From an uncultured Clostridia bacterium (lineage in GTDB: Bacteria; Bacillota; Clostridia; Christensenellales; UBA1242): a stretch of DNA of 64,000 bases. The first letter of the stretch is position 1. Each line of letters begins with the position of its first letter. Of this stretch, positions 3,704-50,508 are shown piece by piece. Made by a program: the position numbers and the translations under genes. The DNA lies in contig CALVMU010000001.1 of the NCBI GenBank assembly GCA_944348085.1, forward strand, positions 1,703 to 65,702, written 5' to 3'. Below the pieces are notes generated by a model. It was not told where the DNA came from and searched no databases. It saw nothing but the letters and a program-made list of their open reading frames with translations.

Positions 3704-4012
3704 TTAAACAATTTTTGGCATAATGTCATAAAGCCCAGTCATTTTGAAAATTTTTTCCGCCTGTTTTGACGGATTGCAAATATAGATAGGAATATGCCTA
3801 TCTTTCATTTTTTTGTATCGCCCAATTAAAACTCCAATACCAGTGCTGTCCATAAATTCAAGCTCTGAAAGGTCAATTATGATTTGATTGAAATCACCAC
3901 CCGCAAACACATTGTCAAGCGTTATACGAGTGTGAGTGGCAGAATGCTCGTCAAGCTCGCCACACAAAAGCACATAAAGCGTGTTGTTGTAAACCTTGCT
4001 TTTTATTTGCAT
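3704..4012 (-). CDS. spoIIAA: Anti-sigma F factor antagonist SpoIIAA (STAS domain)
   Basis: STAS fold pattern with the phosphorylatable Ser context (DLSELEFMDSTGIGVL). The start was moved to MQIKSK, which has a GGAGAA SD. Confidence 0.9.
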   Translation of the reverse strand: MQIKSKVYNNTLYVLLCGELDEHSATHTRITLDNVFAGGDFNQIIIDLSELEFMDSTGIGVLIGRYKKMKDRHIPIYICNPSKQAEKIFKMTGLYDIMPKIV

Positions 4013-4039
4013 TGCTTTTTCTCCTTCTGTAGTAACGAT

Positions 4040-4087
4040 AACATATTCAGCCTTGCGAAAAATATCCACCTTTGTCAAAAATTGACA
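4040..4087 (-). promoter_or_regulatory. spoIIA promoter region: sigma-H-like elements plus a palindrome of two Spo0A-box-like half sites
   Basis: The sense strand reads TGTCAAtttTTGACA (4087-4073), then AAAGGTGGA, then N14, then GCTGAATAT. The palindrome resembles 0A boxes (TGTCGAA) and the rest resembles sigma-H -35 (AGGAwww) and -10 (GAAT) elements. Confidence 0.4.
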
Positions 4088-4118: not shown

Positions 4119-4156
4119 TCTAGTTTTGTGCGCTTATGGTTTGCGCTTAAAGCTTT

Positions 4157-4876
4157 TTATAACAAAAACTCTTTTTGAGCTTTCTGAGCCTGAATTTTGC
4201 CCAATCGGTGCGGAATTTGATAGCGCTTTCCATCTTTGACAAAATTGCTTCCAGTGTCGTAAAATTCAAAGTCAACACCATAACGCTTGCACTGCATTGC
4301 CAAATCTTTAACCCAATCAAAATTCAGTTCTCTTGCGTTTTTATAGTTTTCACCGCCTACTGCAACATGGCTGATTTTGCCAGTTTGAAGATATTTTTCA
4401 ATGTTTATTGCCTCAAGCATTGGCGAGACAATAAGCCCACGATAATCAAGGTCAAGACCAAGCAAAATCGGAATGCGCTCATCTGCGCGTTTTTGATTTT
4501 CAACCGTCACATTTAAATAAAAATTTTTGTAATCCTCTTTAAAATTTTCTGGCAAACTCACCCTTTCAATTCTTTTCGTAATAACCTCAAATTTGACATC
4601 TTGCCTTTGCAAAATCATTTGCCAAACCTTATCACGATAAAGGTCAGCCTCTTCCAAGAAAAAATCACTTGTAAGACACACCATCACATGCGAGCCACTT
4701 TCAAGTTTATATGAACCGTCTCTTTTCTTTTTTACCAGCAAATCAAAATCATTGTTTATGCGAAAAATATTGCTATCAATCCCCCTTTGTTTATCAAAAG
4801 AGAACATATAACAATTTTGACACCCTTCACTCTTTTTGTGACAGCCATGCCACGGATTATACATAAACGATTTCAT
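4157..4876 (-). CDS. Phage Gp37/Gp68-family protein (DUF5131)
   Basis: The N-terminal NPWHGCHKKSEGCQNCY three-Cys motif and the later SDFF / ITKR blocks match the family as I remember it. The start is uncertain (4876 or 4864) and there is no good SD. Confidence 0.7.
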   Translation of the reverse strand: MKSFMYNPWHGCHKKSEGCQNCYMFSFDKQRGIDSNIFRINNDFDLLVKKKRDGSYKLESGSHVMVCLTSDFFLEEADLYRDKVWQMILQRQDVKFEVITKRIERVSLPENFKEDYKNFYLNVTVENQKRADERIPILLGLDLDYRGLIVSPMLEAINIEKYLQTGKISHVAVGGENYKNARELNFDWVKDLAMQCKRYGVDFEFYDTGSNFVKDGKRYQIPHRLGKIQAQKAQKEFLL

Positions 4877-5024
4877 TATTCTTAGTTTATAAAACCAATC
4901 CGCAAAAGTCAATAAAATTCAGTTTCTATTCGACATTATTTGACAATAATAGCAAGAGGTCGGCCTATAATCAAAAAATTAAGATAAACATTTTTAATAA
5001 TTTCCCCTTCCCCCATCTCTTTAT

Positions 5025-5053
5025 TTGACTTTATCATGTTTTTTGTTTAAAAT
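5025..5053 (+). promoter_or_regulatory. Sigma-A promoter for the two small ORFs
   Basis: TTGACT (5025-5030), a 17-nt spacer, then TAAAAT (5048-5053). Confidence 0.5.
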
Positions 5054-5075
5054 TTAAATAATAAAGGAGGCGCCT

Positions 5076-5345
5076 ATGGATGAAAAACAGTTTGCGAGCC
5101 ACATGCTTAAAATTTTGCAAGAAAATATTCAAGATTTCATTTCTTCAAAGCCCGTAATATCTATCAAAAAACCCTTATCTGTTGCGGAATTTGAAAAATT
5201 AAATCTAAATTACAAGAATTTAAAAGCCGAATGCAAAAAACTAAGCATTAATGTTTCAAAAAGAACTTACAAAAAACAGCCCTATATCTTTTTTCAATAT
5301 TTTAACCCTCAATATATGTCTGAGAAAAATAAAATAATATTATAA
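5076..5345 (+). CDS. Hypothetical small Lys-rich protein
   Basis: 89-aa ORF with an AAGGAGG SD 7 nt upstream. No recognisable motif. Confidence 0.55.
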   Translation: MDEKQFASHMLKILQENIQDFISSKPVISIKKPLSVAEFEKLNLNYKNLKAECKKLSINVSKRTYKKQPYIFFQYFNPQYMSEKNKIIL

Positions 5346-5355
5346 AGGAGAAACT

Positions 5356-5550
5356 ATGAGAACATTATTTGATATTTTAGACGAACAGAAACAATTAATT
5401 GAAAAATGCTATGACATTCAACAAGAAGAGCTTAAAAACAACGCACCTTTAAAACAACAAAAACGAACATACAGAGAATTTCAAAAACAAATGAAAAAAC
5501 TTGAAAAAGAAGAAAAAACATGCCTAAAAAACATGAAAAATAACGCATAA
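5356..5550 (+). CDS. Hypothetical small coiled-coil protein
   Basis: 64-aa ORF with an AAGGAG SD. It is tightly coupled to the preceding ORF. Confidence 0.55.
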   Translation: MRTLFDILDEQKQLIEKCYDIQQEELKNNAPLKQQKRTYREFQKQMKKLEKEEKTCLKNMKNNA

Positions 5551-5689
5551 CTGATAGAAAAACATGACATACGAAGAACATATGCAAACAGACCTTTCCT
5601 ATTAATAGATAATAAAAAAAGAGTCCAAAAAGTCAATTCTATTAAAATCAAACCTAAACAAGATGAAATAATCATAAACAACATTGATA

Positions 5690-5733
5690 TAAAAAAATCG
5701 CTATATTCCTTTGTTTTAAAGGCTTACAGCGAT
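5690..5733 (-). terminator. Terminator of the tRNA operon
   Basis: On the - strand, AATCGCT...AGCGATT (with an inner CCTTT/AAAGG stem) is followed by T7. Confidence 0.5.
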
Positions 5734-5742
5734 TTTTCTTTA

Positions 5743-5827
5743 TGGTGGGCAGGGGTGGATTCGAACCACCGAAGACGTAGTCGACGGATTTACAGTCCGT
5801 TGCATTTGGCCGCTCTGCAACCTACCC
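5743..5827 (-). tRNA. tRNA-Tyr (GTA), class II, CCA encoded
   Basis: Cloverleaf read by hand. The anticodon loop is CTGTAAA, the variable arm is long, and the T arm is GGTGGTTCGAATCCACC. Confidence 0.95.
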
Positions 5828-5861
5828 ATAAAATTTAAGCACCTTTTTATAGGTGCTTTTT

Positions 5862-5936
5862 TGGAGCTGGTGAAAGGAATCGAACCTTCAACCTGCTGAT
5901 TACAAGTCAGCTGCTCTACCATTGAGCCACACCAGC
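5862..5936 (-). tRNA. tRNA-Thr (TGT)
   Basis: Acceptor GCTGGTG/CACCAGC, anticodon arm GCTGA-CTTGTAA-TCAGC, CCA encoded. Confidence 0.95.
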
Positions 5937-6022
5937 ATAAGATTTAAATGATTTTTTGTTTATATTATGGGGGTAATAGTGGAATGATTAAAAATGGGGG
6001 ATGTCATTCCACAGACCACCAG

Positions 6023-6098
6023 TGGTGCCCTAAGGTGGAATCGAACCACCGACACAAGGATTTTCAGTCCTTTGCTCTACCGACTGAGCTATCAGGGC
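6023..6098 (-). tRNA. tRNA-Phe (GAA)
   Basis: GCCCTGATAGCTCAGTCGGTAGAGCAAAGGACTGAAAATCCTTGTGTCGGTGGTTCGATTCCACCTTAGGGCACCA. Confidence 0.95.
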
Positions 6099-6113
6099 AA
6101 AATCTTTTTTCTG

Positions 6114-6296
6114 TCGATTCCACCTTAACGAAATCGAACCACCGACACAGCTCCGAAAACTACGCTCTCAGGCTACGGTTTGTCAAAGTCAAACCTCTCC
6201 GCCTTCTCTTGTTTCCTCCGCTCCCCAAAAGAACTTCCGTTCTTTCGTGGCCCCCTCTCTCAGTCCTTTGCTTTTGCCGAACTGAGCTATCAGGGC
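6114..6296 (-). repeat. tRNA-Phe-derived structured unit X1 (tRNA 5' half, ~125-nt insert, T-arm 5' part, fold-back); not a functional tRNA
   Basis: It begins with GCCCTGATAGCTCAG...AAAGGACTG, matching tRNA-Phe. The insert starts inside the anticodon loop. It ends with GTGTCGGTGGTTCGATT followed by TTAAGGTGGAATCGA, the rc of the T-loop/acceptor junction. There is no 3' acceptor strand. Confidence 0.75.
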
Positions 6297-6310
6297 ATCA
6301 ATAACATTTT

Positions 6311-6499
6311 TCGATTCATTTTTATAGTGTCATCAGAATCGAACCACCGACACTTGCTCCGAAAATTGTGCTCTAGGCTTTTTGCTTTCAGCAAATTAAG
6401 CCACTTTCGCTCATTTTCTTCGCTTCCCCAAAAGGCTTAACAGCCTTTCGTGGTCCCCCTTAGCAGTCCTTTGCTTTTGCCGACTTAAGCTATCAGGGC
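6311..6499 (-). repeat. tRNA-Phe-derived structured unit X2 (paralog of X1)
   Basis: Same architecture as X1. The long hairpin 6426-6453 differs from the X1 hairpin 6223-6250 by three compensatory base-pair changes. Confidence 0.75.
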
Positions 6500-6522
6500 G
6501 AAATTTTTGACCCTTTGGGTCT

Positions 6523-6599
6523 TGGCGACTCGGATGGGGCTCGAACCCACGACCTCCAGCGTGACAGGCTGGCGTTCTAACCAACTGAACTACCGAGCC
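6523..6599 (-). tRNA. tRNA-Asp (GTC)
   Basis: GGCTCGGTAGTTCAGTTGGTTAGAAC..CCTGTCACG..GGGTTCGAGCCCC..CCGAGTCGCCA. Confidence 0.95.
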
Positions 6600-6636
6600 A
6601 CATATCGTGACTTTGTTTCCTCGACATAGCTTGTCT

Positions 6637-6713
6637 TGGTGGGCCTTCAGGGACTCGAACCCCGGACCGACCGGTTATGAGCCGGTTGCTCTAACCAACT
6701 GAGCTAAAGGCCC
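6637..6713 (-). tRNA. tRNA with CAT anticodon (elongator Met or lysidine-dependent Ile2; not an initiator)
   Basis: The anticodon arm is ACCGG-CTCATAA-CCGGT. A G1-C72 pair is present and the three-G:C initiator signature is absent. Confidence 0.9.
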
Positions 6714-6740
6714 ATAAGAAGAGTCAAACTCATCAAGGAA

Positions 6741-6816
6741 TGGTCGGGGTGGAGAGGCTCGAACTCCCGACCTCATGGTCCCAAACCACGCGCGCTACCA
6801 ACTGCGCTACACCCCG
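6741..6816 (-). tRNA. tRNA-Pro (TGG)
   Basis: CGGGGTGTAGCGCAGTTGGTAGCGCGCGTGGTTTGGGACCATG... Confidence 0.95.
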
Positions 6817-6836
6817 ATGAATAAGTTTGCGAAGAT

Positions 6837-6865
6837 ATTTTAATATAAATAACAAAATATGTCAA
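6837..6865 (-). promoter_or_regulatory. Sigma-A promoter of the tRNA operon
   Basis: The rc reads TTGACA (6865-6860), a 17-nt spacer, then TAAAAT (6842-6837). It lies about 20 nt upstream of tRNA-Pro. Confidence 0.65.
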
Positions 6866-6965
6866 GAAAAATCGCAAAAATTTTTTATTTTTTTTAAGTT
6901 TATTCTTCCCCTTGCTTTAAGAGGAAGAAAAACTAATACATTTTATGCAAACTTACACCTCTGTG

Positions 6966-8378
6966 CTATTCAGAAAAAACATTGTCTTCGTCATCTCGTA
7001 TTCTATCGCTTACAAAATCTATGAAAAACTGCATGTCTTTTTTACTGATAGGTGTTCCTTTATGATAATTTGCTGCAACATTTATTCCCATTTTCTTTAA
7101 AGGTTTTAAAGAATGAACATGCCCAAAAAAGTTGATCATATCTGGTTTGGTTTTTGATGGAAAATGATTCATGTAAACATCAACGCCAAAAATCTTTTTA
7201 TCAAGCATCAAGCCTTCTTGATAAACATCTGCAAAACCAAGGTTTTTAAGTTTTTCTCTAAACTGCTCAAATGTCTCCCCTTTCGCAAGTTTTTCATGAT
7301 TTCCACAAATGAGGTAGATTTTTCCATTCAATCTTTTTACAACATTATAGTCGCCAAAATCGCCCAAGTGATAAACAATGTCCTTTTTCGAAACAACGCT
7401 GTTCCAATTTTTTACAAGATTTTCAGTCATTTCTTCTTTTGTTCTATAACCAAACTGACGAATTTTGTATTTTCGTGGATCATTGAAATGGGTGTCTGAA
7501 ATAAAGAAATAATTTCTTGGCGCAAAGTTGTTTGAAAGTTTGATAAGTTTTTTGGTAAAGTCTTTCCAAACGCCCTCAATTGATTTAAGGTCATAAATGT
7601 AATTGACCAGCTTGTTCATTGATGTTTTTGAAAAATCTTTCAAAAGCATGTTGACTGGCAATTGCTTTACATAACAAAAGTCAGAATTGATTAAATAAGC
7701 AATTGGAATAAGGCTATACATTCTGCAAAATTCCTGTGTAAAATCAATATTTTCAGTCAGTCTTTTATAAAGATAGTTGCCAAGTTGATTTACAGCAACA
7801 TCCTCTTTGATCTTTTCATAAGAAATTGCAAAAAGCTTGCCAATATAGCTTGGGAAAATTGTCAGCGATGCAGTTGACTTTGCCACAATTTCAAAAGCTC
7901 GTTTGTCGGCTTGATAGTTGATGTCAGTAAATTCTTGATGAAAAACATGTCTAAGTCCAAGCCACAAAACCTCCAAATTTTTGGCAATTGATGGCTTTTT
8001 CTCAATCGCCAAGGCAACATTTGTAAGAGAACCAAAACAAACGATGGTTGTTTTTGATCTGCTTGCAAGCTCGATTATCTTTTTGACCGCTGGTGAAGTT
8101 TGACTATAAAGTTCGTCACAAAAACCTTCACTGCCTTCAAGACAAATTTCATAATCCTTAAAACCAACATAACGCAAAATTCTGTGCGCTTCAAGCTCAT
8201 TTTCAAGCTGAGTGTCTCGCATGCTTAAACCTTTAAATTTGAATGGTGCAAGAGTGATTGCTTGAACCTCTATGCTAGGCTCAGCAAAAGCATAACAAAG
8301 CGCCAAATCATCTTCAACTGTATTGCCACAGTCGAGATCTATAACAATCTTTTTCGTCTTTAATTTTTCTTTTTTCAT
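6966..8378 (-). CDS. Fusion protein: inosine-uridine nucleoside hydrolase-like N-domain plus calcineurin-type metallophosphoesterase C-domain
   Basis: The N-domain has DLDCGNTVEDD (a DxDxxxDD-like motif with an insert) and FGSLTNVALAIEKKPSIAKNL (compare TGPLTNIALA). The C-domain has ISDTHF, HLGDFGD, CGNHE and GHVH metal-ligand motifs. Confidence 0.65.
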   Translation of the reverse strand: MKKEKLKTKKIVIDLDCGNTVEDDLALCYAFAEPSIEVQAITLAPFKFKGLSMRDTQLENELEAHRILRYVGFKDYEICLEGSEGFCDELYSQTSPAVKKIIELASRSKTTIVCFGSLTNVALAIEKKPSIAKNLEVLWLGLRHVFHQEFTDINYQADKRAFEIVAKSTASLTIFPSYIGKLFAISYEKIKEDVAVNQLGNYLYKRLTENIDFTQEFCRMYSLIPIAYLINSDFCYVKQLPVNMLLKDFSKTSMNKLVNYIYDLKSIEGVWKDFTKKLIKLSNNFAPRNYFFISDTHFNDPRKYKIRQFGYRTKEEMTENLVKNWNSVVSKKDIVYHLGDFGDYNVVKRLNGKIYLICGNHEKLAKGETFEQFREKLKNLGFADVYQEGLMLDKKIFGVDVYMNHFPSKTKPDMINFFGHVHSLKPLKKMGINVAANYHKGTPISKKDMQFFIDFVSDRIRDDEDNVFSE

Positions 8379-34648: not shown

Positions 34649-34723
34649 GGCCTCATGGTCAAGCGGTTAAGACACCGCCCTTTCACGGCGGAATCAGGGG
34701 TTCGATTCCCCTTGAGGCTACCA
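34649..34723 (+). tRNA. tRNA-Glu (TTC)
   Basis: GGCCTCATGGTCAAGCGGTTAAGACACCGCCCTTTCACGGCGGAATCAGGGGTTCGATTCCCCTTGAGGCTACCA. Confidence 0.95.
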
Positions 34724-34734
34724 AAAAAAATTGC

Positions 34735-34758
34735 GCGAAGAAATCTCTTCGCTTTTTT
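34735..34758 (+). terminator. Intrinsic terminator after tRNA-Glu (duplicated at 35051-35074)
   Basis: GCGAAGA-aatc-TCTTCGC followed by T6. Confidence 0.7.
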
Positions 34759-34929
34759 GTTACTTTATTTATTAAAAGGAATCGAACCCCGTCTTGTTAG
34801 GGCTCCCGAAAATCGAAAGATTTTTGGGAAGAGGAGCAAACGAGCGCAAGAGCAAGAGTTTTGATAAAAACTTTGCATAAGCGAAGTTTGTGACGAGATT
34901 CCCCTTGAGGCTACCAAAAAAAATTGCGC
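34759..34929 (+). repeat. tRNA-Glu 3' module: anti-T-arm box, conserved hairpin, and a second copy of the tRNA 3' end
   Basis: GGAATCGAACCCC (34777-34789) is the rc of the Glu T arm. The hairpin is CCCGAAAATC-GAAA-GATTTTTGGG (34804-34827). The 33-bp block gattccccttgaggctaccaaaaaaaattgcgc at 34897-34929 is identical to 34704-34736. Confidence 0.8.
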
Positions 34930-35074
34930 TTTTGCCTAGCTACTTCGTAGCGTATGGCACTGGCGCTTATTTTTTTTTGTTGTTTCGCGCCAAACGAAAA
35001 TCGCACAGCGAATTTTGCGCGAACTTGCATAAAGTTTGATAAAAAATTGAGCGAAGAAATCTCTTCGCTTTTTT
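34930..35074 (+). repeat. Second repeat block: more hairpins plus a third copy of the tRNA-Glu downstream flank and terminator
   Basis: It contains GCTAC-ttc-GTAGC and CGAAAATCGC-aca-GCGAATTTTGCG (same hairpin family). The sequence aaaaaattgAgcgaagaaatctcttcgcttttttgtt at 35041-35077 matches 34725-34761 with one mismatch. Confidence 0.7.
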
Positions 35075-35150
35075 GTTTGTTTCTAAAATAAATCTCCAAC
35101 AAAAAACCACCCTTTTTGGAGTTTTCCCCATCAAGAGTGGTTTTAGCTTT

Positions 35151-45881: not shown

Positions 45882-46013
45882 ACTGCCCTACAAATAAATA
45901 TGCTGGTGTGGCGGCTCGGGGTCCCCAAAAGCTTATAAAGATTTTGGGGTGATCAGTGGCAGACGCACAGACTTAAAGTCCTGTGCGTAAACTAAATAAA
46001 AAGTTTAGTTATT
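45882..46013 (+). repeat. tRNA-Leu(UAA) 5'-half unit with a D-loop hairpin insert (132-bp unit, tandem to the real gene)
   Basis: The head actgccctacaaataaatatGCTGGTGTGGCGG is identical to 46014-46046. The insert hairpin is at 45923-45949. It is followed by ACGCACAG-ACTTAAAGTC-CTGTGCGT, which still displays TAA. There is no T arm and no 3' acceptor strand. Confidence 0.8.
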
Positions 46014-46033
46014 ACTGCCCTACAAATAAATAT

Positions 46034-46119
46034 GCTGGTGTGGCGGAATGGCAGACGCACAGGACTTAAAATCCTGAGGTGGCAACACCGTGTGGGTTCG
46101 ACTCCCACCACCAGCACCA
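46034..46119 (+). tRNA. tRNA-Leu (TAA), class II
   Basis: GCTGGTGTGGCGGAATGGCAGACGCACAGGACTTAAAATCCTGAGGTGGCAACACCGTGTGGGTTCGACTCCCACCACCAGCACCA. Confidence 0.95.
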
Positions 46120-46256
46120 AAGAAAAATCTGCGTGTGAAATGCAGTTTTTTATTCAAATCAAGTGCGCATAAAAGTGGGAGGTGACCCCTTGGGTGAGAC
46201 GGGTTCCCTGAAAATCGTCAGATTTTTAGGGTAAGGCTTCCACCACCAGCACCAAG
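46120..46256 (+). repeat. tRNA-Leu 3' module L1: weak terminator hairpin, degenerate anti-T-arm box, conserved hairpin, second tRNA 3' end
   Basis: GTGGGAGGTGACCCC (46175-46189). Hairpin CCCTGAAAATC-GTCA-GATTTTTAGGG (46206-46231). ccaccaccagcaccaa at 46240-46255 is identical to 46105-46120. L1 is about 90% identical to 50367-50508. Confidence 0.8.
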
Positions 46257-49862: not shown

Positions 49863-49990
49863 TAAAGAAACCTTTGCCCAAATTGCTAAAACAGAATGCC
49901 CCACCCTTTGACTTAACATTCCAAAATATTTACATGTTTTGCGATAAAACACAAACAAAAATCAGGTGCGCAAAATTGATAACTTGATTT

Positions 49991-50124
49991 CTACTGCCCT
50001 ACAATTTAATATGCTGGTGTGGCGGCTCGGGGTCCCCAAAAACTTATAAAGATTTTGGGGTGATCAGTGGCAGACCGACGGCTCAAGAGTCCGTCGCGAA
50101 AACGAAATTGACTTACTTAGTTTT
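49991..50124 (+). repeat. tRNA-Leu(CAA) 5'-half unit, copy 1 (134 bp)
   Basis: Head ctactgccctacaatttaatatGCTGGTGTGGCGG, D-loop insert hairpin at 50034-50060, anticodon-like hairpin CGACGG-CTCAAGAGT-CCGTCG, and tail hairpin GAAAAC..GTTTTC. Confidence 0.8.
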
Positions 50125-50258
50125 CTACTGCCCTACAATTTTATATGCTGGTGTGGCGGTTCGGGGTCCCCAAAAGCTTATAAAGGTTTTGGGGTGATCA
50201 GTGGCAGACCGACGGCTCAAGAGTCCGTCGCGAAAACGAAATTGACTTACTTAGTTTT
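50125..50258 (+). repeat. tRNA-Leu(CAA) 5'-half unit, copy 2 (134 bp)
   Basis: Near-identical to copy 1, with a handful of substitutions. Its hairpin is at 50168-50194. Confidence 0.8.
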
Positions 50259-50280
50259 CTACTGCCCTACAATTTTATAT

Positions 50281-50366
50281 GCTGGTGTGGCGGAATGGCA
50301 GACGCGACGGACTCAAAATCCGTTGAGGGCAACTTCATGTGGGTTCGACTCCCACCACCAGCACCA
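50281..50366 (+). tRNA. tRNA-Leu (CAA), class II
   Basis: GCTGGTGTGGCGGAATGGCAGACGCGACGGACTCAAAATCCGTTGAGGGCAACTTCATGTGGGTTCGACTCCCACCACCAGCACCA. Confidence 0.95.
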
Positions 50367-50508
50367 AGAAAAAATCTGCGTGTAAAATGCAGTTTTTTTA
50401 TTTAAATCAAATGCACATAAAATGTGGGAGTCGAACCCTTGGGTGAGACGGGTTCCCTGAAAATCGCCAGATTTTTAGGGTAAGGCTTCCACCACCAGCA
50501 CCAAGAAA
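50367..50508 (+). repeat. tRNA-Leu 3' module L2: exact anti-T-arm box, conserved hairpins, second tRNA 3' end
   Basis: GTGGGAGTCGAACCC (50424-50438) is the rc of the T arm GGGTTCGACTCCCAC. The hairpin is at 50455-50480. The 20-bp block ccaccaccagcaccaagaaa at 50489-50508 is identical to 50352-50371. Confidence 0.85.

Follow-up and report, generated by a model that had tools for sequence, protein, structure and literature searches.

Tandem pseudo-tRNA units in a clostridial tRNA operon carry a structured RNA module related to a motif of uncultured phages

Introduction

In Escherichia coli the 3' external transcribed spacer (3'ETS) of leuZ is, as Lalaouna et al. reportedly described in 2015, a functional RNA cut from a tRNA precursor by the tRNA-processing machinery. 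It may be the closest model for the release from a tRNA precursor, and for an action in trans, of the elements considered here, two tandem units termed X1 and X2 that lie between the tRNA-Asp and tRNA-Phe genes of a 64,000-nucleotide (nt) stretch of contig CALVMU010000001.1 from an uncultured Clostridia bacterium (the window, whose positions are used below). The leuZ spacer differs from them in being a short unstructured small-RNA sponge that is no tRNA pseudogene chimera and has no phage relatives. Genetic elements are said, in work by Williams of 2002, to integrate in tRNA genes at anticodon-loop and T-loop sublocations, and the attL/attR scars of such events are the closest model at the DNA level.

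Structured RNAs encoded by phages provide further points of comparison. Prophage self-cleaving ribozymes and the RAGATH candidates are compact intergenic motifs between phage genes, to which the phage motif described below is similar in its conserved junctions and covarying stems, and from which it differs in giving no significant Rfam match. GOLLD and ROOL are large prophage RNAs of about 500-800 nt. In behaviour they are the closest analogues, being structured non-coding RNAs present in phages and beside chromosomal tRNA genes; one report describes ROOL in these terms, as a structured phage-borne RNA that also occurs beside bacterial tRNA genes and is possibly co-transcribed with them (PMC5737381). 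Both are several-fold larger and are not fused to tRNA fragments, and neither gave an Rfam match here, whereas the motif described below measures about 107 nt, is multi-copy and is strictly intercistronic in phages. Among tRNA-derived genes, tRNA-Other of Bacillus cereus is reportedly a retained gene unfit for translation (PMC3399842); it keeps the cloverleaf, whereas X1 and X2 are without three of the eight stem strands and contain a foreign 110-nt module.

We report that the inserts of X1 and X2 are diverged members of a three-helix RNA family of phages and are not tRNA-derived, although the ends of the units are. Elsewhere in the window, fragments of further tRNA genes are joined to this module or to its first hairpin alone. 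A literature search found no description of a module fused to halves of the adjacent tRNA at several loci. To our knowledge, natural tRNA-scaffolded RNAs of this kind are undescribed in bacteria.

Results and Discussion

Anatomy of X1 and X2

The operon runs on the minus strand in the order Pro, Met, Asp, X2, X1, Phe, Thr, Tyr (Table 1). An initial annotation of the DNA had proposed two tandem units with tRNA-Phe-derived ends in the Asp-Phe spacer, and this is borne out by the layout and by the shared blocks. Indeed, GCCCTGATAGCT opens X1 and X2 alike; the 18-mer GGCAAAAGCAAAGGACTG, common to both, occurs exactly twice in the window (chance expectation 0.17 at up to 3 mismatches); and GTGTCGGTGGTTCGATT, which corresponds to nt 44-60 of tRNA-Phe and reads GUGUCGGUGGUUCGAUU in each unit, is present in both. 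The source of these blocks is the intact tRNA-Phe(GAA). The D stem is weakened in the tRNA-Phe-derived 5' part (about 35 nt) of both units. Between the blocks lies an insert of 110-112 nt, the module, which replaces the end of the anticodon loop and the 3' strand of the anticodon stem (about nt 35/38-43). An inverted copy of the T-loop region takes the place of the 3' strands of the T stem and of the acceptor stem and gives a terminal hairpin. In X1 this fold-back is UCGAUUUC/GGAAUCGA (8 bp, 6137-6114); in X2 it is UCGAUUC/GAAUCGA (7 bp with an 18-nt loop), with a competing GUGUC/GACAC hairpin.

The module opens with a G-run and its CC flank, followed by hairpin A (9-11 bp), the purine block AGCGGA and a helix of 6 bp between purine-purine mismatches that encloses a second hairpin, B. 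The pattern of hairpin A, CCACGAAAG-N10-CTTTTGGGGA, matches the window only at 6222-6250 and 6425-6453, where 0.01 matches are expected. Alignment of X1 with X2 bears out three compensatory pairs at the top of this hairpin, A-U, A-U and C-G in X1 against G-C, C-G and U-A in X2, both sides being changed. On the other hand, the two hairpins B had been considered unrelated in sequence, whereas a UUUG...CAAA core is common to both, and of the flanking blocks described as conserved the one following hairpin A differs by a 1-nt indel (GGGGAGCGGAGG vs GGGGAAGCGAAG). Folding, proposed as a check with the initial annotation, was favourable: hairpin B and its enclosing helix (GGAAAC/GUUUUC in X1, GAAAAU/AUUUUC in X2) are present in both minimum-free-energy folds, with z-scores of -2.87 (X1) and -3.07 (X2), and none of 200 shuffles folds as well.

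Scans for promoters and terminators revealed a single promoter-like site, TTGACA-17-TAAAAT, upstream of tRNA-Pro, and nothing resembling a terminator ahead of the X units; terminator-like hairpins, from the scan and from the sequence, occur in the operon only after Thr and Tyr. Co-transcription of X1 and X2 with the tRNAs, which had been presumed, is therefore likely.

A three-helix RNA motif of phages

The IMG/VR collection was scanned with the flank of the hairpin found in the tRNA-Leu units described below, which yielded four phage contigs with a complete module and no tRNA nearby; a second scan with two conserved blocks yielded 36 loci. The consensus begins with GGGG-N-CCCC, hairpin A and GGGG-AGAGGA-(C/G)-GA, continues with a 5-bp helix P3 with one bulged pyrimidine in its 3' strand, G(G/A)AAUGAGCGAG, hairpin B and CGAG-N-GAUAUGGA, and ends with the 3' strand of P3 and GA-(G/C)-GACGA; the motif comprises about 107 nt and three helices. 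RNAalifold finds compensatory changes in 18 of 34 pairs. In an alignment of 44 copies (35 distinct), 96.6% of the cells are paired and double changes occur in 27 of the 34 pairs; the covariation score is 0.507, compared with 0.185 in shuffles (0/500 reach it) and at most 0.106 in slid controls. One of the covarying pairs, a change from C-G to G-C, stands isolated between the two tandem G.A blocks that flank it.

The contigs that carry the motif belong to uncultured IMG/VR tailed phages, in whose late operons it lies between cistrons, with 1-4 copies per contig, always on the coding strand and sometimes in tandem (L220). Typically a copy starts 1-2 nt after a stop codon and ends at the ribosome-binding site (RBS) or start codon of the next gene, and in several of them the conserved 3' GAGGACGA is the only Shine-Dalgarno (SD)-like sequence. 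In one contig (L191), a copy separates the head-tail adaptor gene from the head-closure gene, and a second one separates a tail assembly-chaperone-like gene (phrog_2115, 'tail protein') from that of the tape measure. The stems of copies from a single phage are markedly different in sequence.

The motif is absent from Rfam 15, and blastn against GenBank phages gave no match. The best Rfam hit to the motif, RAGATH-24, reaches 15 bits against a gathering score of 45 (E 1.7) and is not significant. The motif is a well-supported RNA family, new to Rfam, of a familiar kind. It punctuates the late operons of uncultured gut-type phages, and its position exactly between cistrons allows direct tests of whether it is a ribozyme, a translational operator or a binding site for a protein.

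Some observations on these contigs may be added. Three tandem copies lie at L220:6613-6938 (minus strand) and four within 3 kb at L217:5616-8721; the first copies of such tandems are truncated at their 3' end. A DUF2800 RNA (Rfam RF02960, 120 bits) is found at L190:1733-1892, on a contig that also carries a copy of the motif.

Membership of X1 and X2 in the phage family

Two covariance models were built independently, R1 from X units only and R2 from phage copies only. R2 was searched with filters off against both strands of the 64-kb window. Its top eight matches are a further element downstream of tRNA-Glu (Z, 29.9 bits, E 1.9e-5), X1 (27.4 bits, E 8e-5), X2 (23.6 bits, E 7e-4), three units upstream of tRNA-Leu genes (about 20 bits, E 0.004-0.007) and two units downstream of them (about 14 bits, E about 0.1). 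These are the same eight sites in 64 kb as those retrieved by a strict regular expression for flank and hairpin, all of them beside tRNA genes and on the tRNA strand. Reciprocally, R1 matches phage copies at 17-22 bits.

The 5' half of the family signature (GGGG-N-CC, a hairpin A with a C-G base and an A/U-rich middle, and a GGGG-AGRGGA purine block) is recognizable in X1 as GGGGGCC-A-CGAAAGAAC-GGAA-GUUCUUUUG-GGG-AGCGGA and in X2 as GGGGGACC-A-CGAAAGGCU-GUUA-AGCCUUUUG-GGG-A-AGCGAA. A P3 with purine-purine mismatches of the G.A type enclosing a hairpin is likewise present, namely the helix already given for each unit; the mismatches are GGA/GGA or GAA/GGA, with outer GC/GC pairs. Derivation from tRNA-Phe, claimed for the units as a whole, thus stands for their ends and fails for the insert of about 110 nt, which belongs to a motif family abundant in phages.

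Relatives at the tRNA-Phe locus

A collection of one genome per species was scanned with the X-specific pattern CCACGAAAG-N8-14-CTTTTGGGG. Among 82 loci, the only real ones are on two contigs (L003, L064) of one metagenome-assembled genome (MAG), uncultured Clostridia bacterium BRZ_BP__bin16, which break inside at least two near-identical X units. A metagenome scan with GCAAAGGACTG-N6-16-CACGAAAG gave chance matches in 58 of 58 loci, and viral scans with X-specific and mini-unit patterns gave no real match. Further relatives were reached through the flanking gene, which encodes a nucleoside hydrolase/metallophosphatase of 470 residues, and the same operon was recovered from genomes in which this protein is 96 to 69% identical to that of the window. 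One X2-type unit is present in L094 (96%), one X1-type unit in L095 and L096 (88%), one distinct unit in L113 (76%) and at least two units in the MAG contigs (71%), and X is absent from L098 and L099 (83%) and from L105 and L108 (69%).

The tRNA-derived blocks are invariant across all X units. Between the window and L095 the X1 insert is identical at 112/112 positions, compared with 32/39 in the Met-Asp spacer of the same pair; between genomes with flanking proteins 71-76% identical to the window's, insert identity is 0.78-0.82 (shuffled, 0.55 +/- 0.03). When seven X units from five related genomes are aligned on a model, 92.7% of the cells are paired and 9 pairs are doubly changed, where shuffles give 4.3 +/- 1.4 (0/500 reach the observed number) and slid controls 0-4. 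The hairpin-A loops of the X1-type copies, GGAA, GGGA and GAAA, are all GNRA tetraloops. Homologues thus exist and keep the helices through compensatory changes, in line with the initial proposal of a fold under selection; judged from these alignments, the helices of the module are under purifying selection in the bacterial lineage.

Apart from X, the Asp-Phe spacer of L099 contains at 6063-6296 an unrelated AT-rich insert of 234 nt in place of X; the flanking protein of this genome is identical to that of L098. The Asp-Phe spacer is an insertion hot spot. Units of another type, Y, follow tRNA-Phe at L095:6150-6290, L003 506-395 (minus strand) and L094:6165-6300 and are absent from the window. 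They comprise a GGUGGUCGAACCACC hairpin (T arm with inverted loop), then CAAAU, a second hairpin of sequence CUCUC-GUAA-GAGAG and finally GGUUCGAUUCCACCUUAGGGCACCA, the 3' end of tRNA-Phe; L095 and L003 each have two such units in tandem, whereas those of L094 are degenerate copies.

The module at other tRNA genes of the window

The units are not peculiar to the Asp-Phe spacer, as had been assumed, since the module or its first hairpin is also fused to fragments of tRNA-Glu and of two tRNA-Leu. Four of the 11 tRNA genes of the window (Phe, Glu, Leu-CAA and Leu-UAA) are flanked by their own pseudo-halves in this manner. Z was identified by R1 (27.3 bits, 34786-34925), and the tRNA-Leu loci by looking for further inverted T arms and then reading the sequence.

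Table 1. Coordinates of the tRNA operon and of the module-bearing units in the window. R1 and R2, covariance models from X units and from phage copies, respectively; regex, site also retrieved by the strict flank and hairpin expression.
Feature	Position	Strand	Context and parts	Evidence
tRNA-Pro	6816-6741	-	operon	
tRNA-Met	6713-6637	-	operon	
tRNA-Asp	6523..6599	-	upstream neighbour; followed by small covarying hairpin GACCC-AAA-GGGUC, then X2	ARAGORN
X2 unit	6297..6499	-	tRNA-Phe 1-~35 with altered D arm 6499-6464; module 6463-6354; hairpin A 6453-6425; tRNA-Phe 44-60 at 6353-6337; tail with fold-back 6336-6297	R1 188 bits; R2 23.6 bits, E 7e-4; regex
X1 unit	6099..6296	-	tRNA-Phe 1-~35 at 6296-6261; module 6260-6149; hairpin A 6250-6222; tRNA-Phe 44-60 at 6148-6132; fold-back 6137-6114; A-rich spacer to 6099	R1 229 bits; R2 27.4 bits, E 8e-5; regex
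tRNA-Phe(GAA)	6023..6098	-	operon; intact	ARAGORN; Rfam tRNA 72.3 bits
tRNA-Thr	5936-5862	-	operon	
tRNA-Tyr	5827-5743	-	operon	
Z element	34778..34929	+	downstream of tRNA-Glu (34649-34723); reverse-complemented Glu T arm 34778-34790; full module 34799-34896; tRNA-Glu 3' end and 14-nt trailer 34897-34929	R2 29.9 bits, E 1.9e-5, whole model aligned; regex
pseudo-5'-unit	45902..46033	+	upstream of tRNA-Leu(UAA)	R2 19.5 bits; fold z -4.37; regex
mini 3'-unit	46175..46254	+	after tRNA-Leu(UAA) and its terminator	R2 14.5 bits; regex
two tandem pseudo-5'-units	50013-50146, 50147-50280	+	upstream of tRNA-Leu(CAA)	R2 20.6, 20.3 bits; regex
mini 3'-unit	50424..50503	+	after tRNA-Leu(CAA) and its terminator	R2 14 bits; fold z -3.35; regex

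In Z, a linker separates the inverted Glu T arm from the module, which reads CCCGAAAAUC-GAAA-GAUUUUUGGG, AAGAGGA, GCAAAC...GUUUGU around a long hairpin, and then GACGAG; the segment 34897-34929 is a perfect 33-nt direct repeat of 34704-34736. An orthologue of Z is present in a 96% relative (L177), and a short form with hairpin A only in a 74% relative (L181). Each 5' unit at tRNA-Leu(CAA) contains the tRNA-Leu 5' end, a hairpin of the A type in the D loop (GGGGUCCCCAAAA...UUUUGGGG), the local anticodon arm and a leader. The 5' unit at tRNA-Leu(UAA) has the same architecture, but with a UAA-type anticodon arm. The mini 3'-unit of the CAA locus consists, in this order, of an inverted T arm, a linker, hairpin A only, the 3' strands of the T stem and of the acceptor stem, and CCA; it is followed by a second hairpin and a T-run, a terminator by sequence reading that the terminator scan did not call.

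Additional repeats surround these sites. After Z, the window contains at 34917-35045 a hairpin-rich repeat of about 125 nt (W) whose hairpins include GCUAC-UUCG-GUAGC and GGCGC...GCGCC; the window has a single copy of it, and L177 (3760-4000) a tandem pair, after which a truncated second Z start and a terminator follow. The tRNA-Glu trailer and terminator (GCGAAGAAATCTCTTCGCTTTTTTG, 34725-34776) are duplicated 316 nt downstream (35041-35092, 87% identity) and so bracket Z and the W repeat. Directly before the first Leu(CAA) 5' unit lies a strong promoter-like site (49976-50005, TTGATA-18-TACAAT), and since each Leu repeat unit has a CTGCCCTACAAT leader, a copy of the -10 box comes with every unit. 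The permuted-tmRNA model gives weak matches at 46092-46206 and 50339-50455 (21 bits, gathering score 47, E about 0.25), which extend from the tRNA-Leu T arm over the terminator to the inverted T arm; they probably reflect just the tRNA 3' end.

Possible function of the units

Taken together, these comparisons suggest that X1 and X2, which are tandem chimeric pseudo-tRNA units, are probably co-transcribed with the operon and that the module may be the selected part of the resulting RNA. For this reading as a whole we see about an even chance, and its descriptive core is far more secure than its functional part. The units would be transcribed from the promoter of the Pro-Met-Asp-...-Tyr operon and freed by the RNase P cut at the 5' end of tRNA-Phe together with 3'-end maturation of tRNA-Asp. 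The tRNA-derived 5' block could pair with the G-run of the module (GCCCU/GGGG), followed by an NCCA-like CCAC or ACCAC, and this 5' pairing and the 3' fold-back may serve as end-protecting or processing handles. The module would then be the functional payload, most likely bound by the same putative factor that reads the phage motif, for which a ribosome- or SD-binding site, or a site for an RNA-binding protein, are candidate roles; the chromosomal copies would in that case act as cis-stabilising or decoy RNA.

Several points weigh against this proposal. X is dispensable, its copy number being 0, 1 or 2 among close relatives. The putative helix between the acceptor 5' strand and the G-run is invariant across the seven X units, which therefore offer no covariation for it. 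The high identity between species could stem from recombination via the identical flanking tRNA genes. As to the motif itself, R2 aligns only the 5' half of X1 and X2 convincingly; the bulged P3 pyrimidine of the phage copies is absent in X; and the junctions that are near-invariant in phages (AAUGAGCGAG, CGAGGGAUAUGGA) are poorly kept, X1 having AAGAGAAGG and CCUGAGAGCGUA in place of G(G/A)AAUGAGCGAG and CGAGNGAUAUGGA, and only fragments are left elsewhere (GAGCG in X2 and Z, AAUGA in L113). With these nucleotides decayed, the original activity of the motif, be it binding or chemistry, may have been lost in X. Moreover, X2 and Z do not share the enrichment of GGA seen in phage copies (6.2 vs 2.6 per 107 nt). 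X1 and X2 lie between tRNA genes and do not have the phage placement between a stop codon and an RBS or start codon.

A still more far-reaching interpretation, which we regard as speculative and rather unlikely, is that a class of phage RNA elements has been naturally grafted on tRNA scaffolds in a Clostridia lineage, the chimeras being matured by the tRNA-processing machinery and serving as host decoys for a factor encoded or exploited by the phage (whereby RNA would interfere with late gene expression of the phage) or regulating how tRNAs are matured; alternatively, the module would be a mobile element, guided by RNA or by hairpins, with the three loops of tRNA genes as its targets. In any case, the finding ties the instability of tRNA genes and the recombination between phages and tRNA genes to a conserved RNA fold, and the two covariance models and the defined sequence patterns can be used to survey genomes and metatranscriptomes.

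Alternative explanations

The strongest competitor, tentative and on balance unlikely, considers the units as recombination scars, i.e. non-functional leftovers of phage or island DNA at tRNA genes, joined by integrase or by microhomology at the tRNA loops and reshaped by later deletions and unequal crossing-over; the helices would persist since the phage module was already a stable fold. It agrees with the attL/attR model in that partial tRNA copies lie by an intact gene together with DNA of phage type, tRNA genes being classical integration sites. It accounts well for Z, for the short 3' units and for the Y units: Z (with its 33-nt repeat) and the Leu 3' units are flanked by attL/attR-like direct repeats of tRNA 3' end and trailer of 16-33 nt (about 50 nt in L181), and the Y units are further tRNA-Phe 3'-end repeats after tRNA-Phe in L095, L003 and L094. 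The variable copy number of X, the truncated versions in L177 (near 4005-4040) and in L181 and the decay of the phage-motif junctions in X also point in this direction. However, in X and in the Leu 5' units it is the 5' part of the tRNA that is duplicated, with the intact gene downstream of X1 and X2, whereas integrating elements carry the 3' part, and the anticodon arm in each Leu 5' unit is that of its own locus. The units measure 80-200 nt with no island between the repeats, and include inverted T-arm copies. No integrase, recombinase or phage gene was found beside X among the neighbouring open reading frames (ORFs) scanned with Pfam, which encode the nucleoside hydrolase/metallophosphatase, an SDR protein, a DUF5131 protein and sigma-F, and neither a tRNA nor a T-arm-like 11-mer is present in 334 kb of phage loci with the motif. 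Scars would hardly predict that the helices keep covarying among orthologous chromosomal copies, that the X1 insert is preserved without change beside a diverging spacer, or that 8 of 8 copies are co-oriented with transcription.

A non-autonomous mobile element, small and selfish, in which the hairpin-A module inserts, or once inserted, into the loops of tRNA genes and into intergenic phage DNA by way of single-stranded DNA hairpins or an RNA intermediate, would keep its stems for mobility and not for a cellular RNA function; we consider this a second serious rival, though quite unlikely. It would account for the many copies per phage contig and the eight in 64 kb of chromosome, for the tandem arrays (three in L220, X2-X1, two Leu 5' units), for insertion points in the D loop, anticodon loop and T loop, for the variable presence among relatives, and for the occurrence of both hairpin-only and long versions. 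Yet Pfam scans of the neighbouring genes reveal no transposase, reverse transcriptase or integrase, and neither a constant target sequence nor a terminal inverted repeat nor a target-site duplication was found. The copies of one phage differ too strongly in their stems to be recent transpositions, those in phages are in register with stop and start codons, which fits a cis-acting RNA, and the tRNA fragments match the local tRNA.

The version of the initial annotation, in which a structured RNA arose in place from duplicated tRNA-Phe genes and its insert is local as well, appears very improbable. It is in keeping with the tRNA-Phe-derived ends and with the result that the X-specific scans of genome collection and metagenomes retrieved X-type units at no other locus, and from a single related MAG; but the independent models tie the insert to Z at tRNA-Glu and to the phage copies, and hairpin-A elements flank two tRNA-Leu genes. 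Finally, an intron-containing tRNA-Phe (group I or other) or a plus-strand protein ORF (5948-6304, 6180-6440) is hardly credible: the insert does lie at the anticodon loop and ORFs of 118 and 86 residues overlap the X units, but no Rfam intron matches even at E up to 10, no spliced tRNA is possible with three tRNA 3' strands absent, and homologues differ by frame-breaking indels of 1, 2 and 3 nt.

Comparison with known RNA and DNA classes

Both ARAGORN and the Rfam tRNA model (E up to 10) recognize the operon's six true tRNAs but neither X unit, and an identity as tRNA (RF00005) was rejected, the 3' strands of the anticodon, T and acceptor stems being absent. Rfam searches of the locus (5000-7500, E up to 10) gave only tRNAs and chance-level matches, with no Intron_gpI; a search of the entire window with gathering scores as cut-off and one of the segment 45800-50600 (E up to 5) gave no T-box leader, tmRNA, YrlA, GOLLD or ROOL, apart from the chance-level permuted-tmRNA signal at the tRNA-Leu loci mentioned above. 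The smallest known group I introns have about 200 nt and a P1-P9 core, so that the X insert is half that size; together with the failing Intron_gpI match and an incomplete 3' exon, this led us to discard such an intron.

Other candidates were likewise set aside. A T-box-like Stem I is contradicted by the variation of the candidate specifier triplets (AGC, UGC, CAC) and by the lack of an Rfam match, and a CsrA sponge by the confinement of the GGA enrichment mentioned above. A split tRNA assembled from 5' and 3' units does not agree with a window that has X without Y and Z without a 5' partner, nor do cDNA copies of mature tRNAs stopped at modified bases agree with repeats that include leader, promoter -10 box and trailer DNA. 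A small peptide (MSE...) in the phage motif was dismissed, as indels in hairpin B shift the frame and the conserved AUG is no evidence for a peptide; a target rule of the IS200/IS605 type was dismissed as there is no constant upstream sequence.

Further features of the operon

The short spacer after tRNA-Asp (6500-6522 in the window; also L098, L105, L108 and L113) contains a small hairpin in every genome, with differing sequences (GACCC-AAA-GGGUC, GACC-GUUA-AGGUC, AAUCCUUAUUUUAGGAUUU and AACCU-UAU-AGGUU), so that structure is kept in the short spacers of this tRNA operon as well. On the other side of the operon, a block of small ORFs with a DUF5131 gene (phage Gp37/Gp68-like) lies between tRNA-Tyr and the spoIIAA-spoIIAB-sigF operon both in the window (about 4150-5740) and in L095 (5772-7700); it is absent in L098 and L105 and is therefore probably an island inserted beside the tRNA operon.

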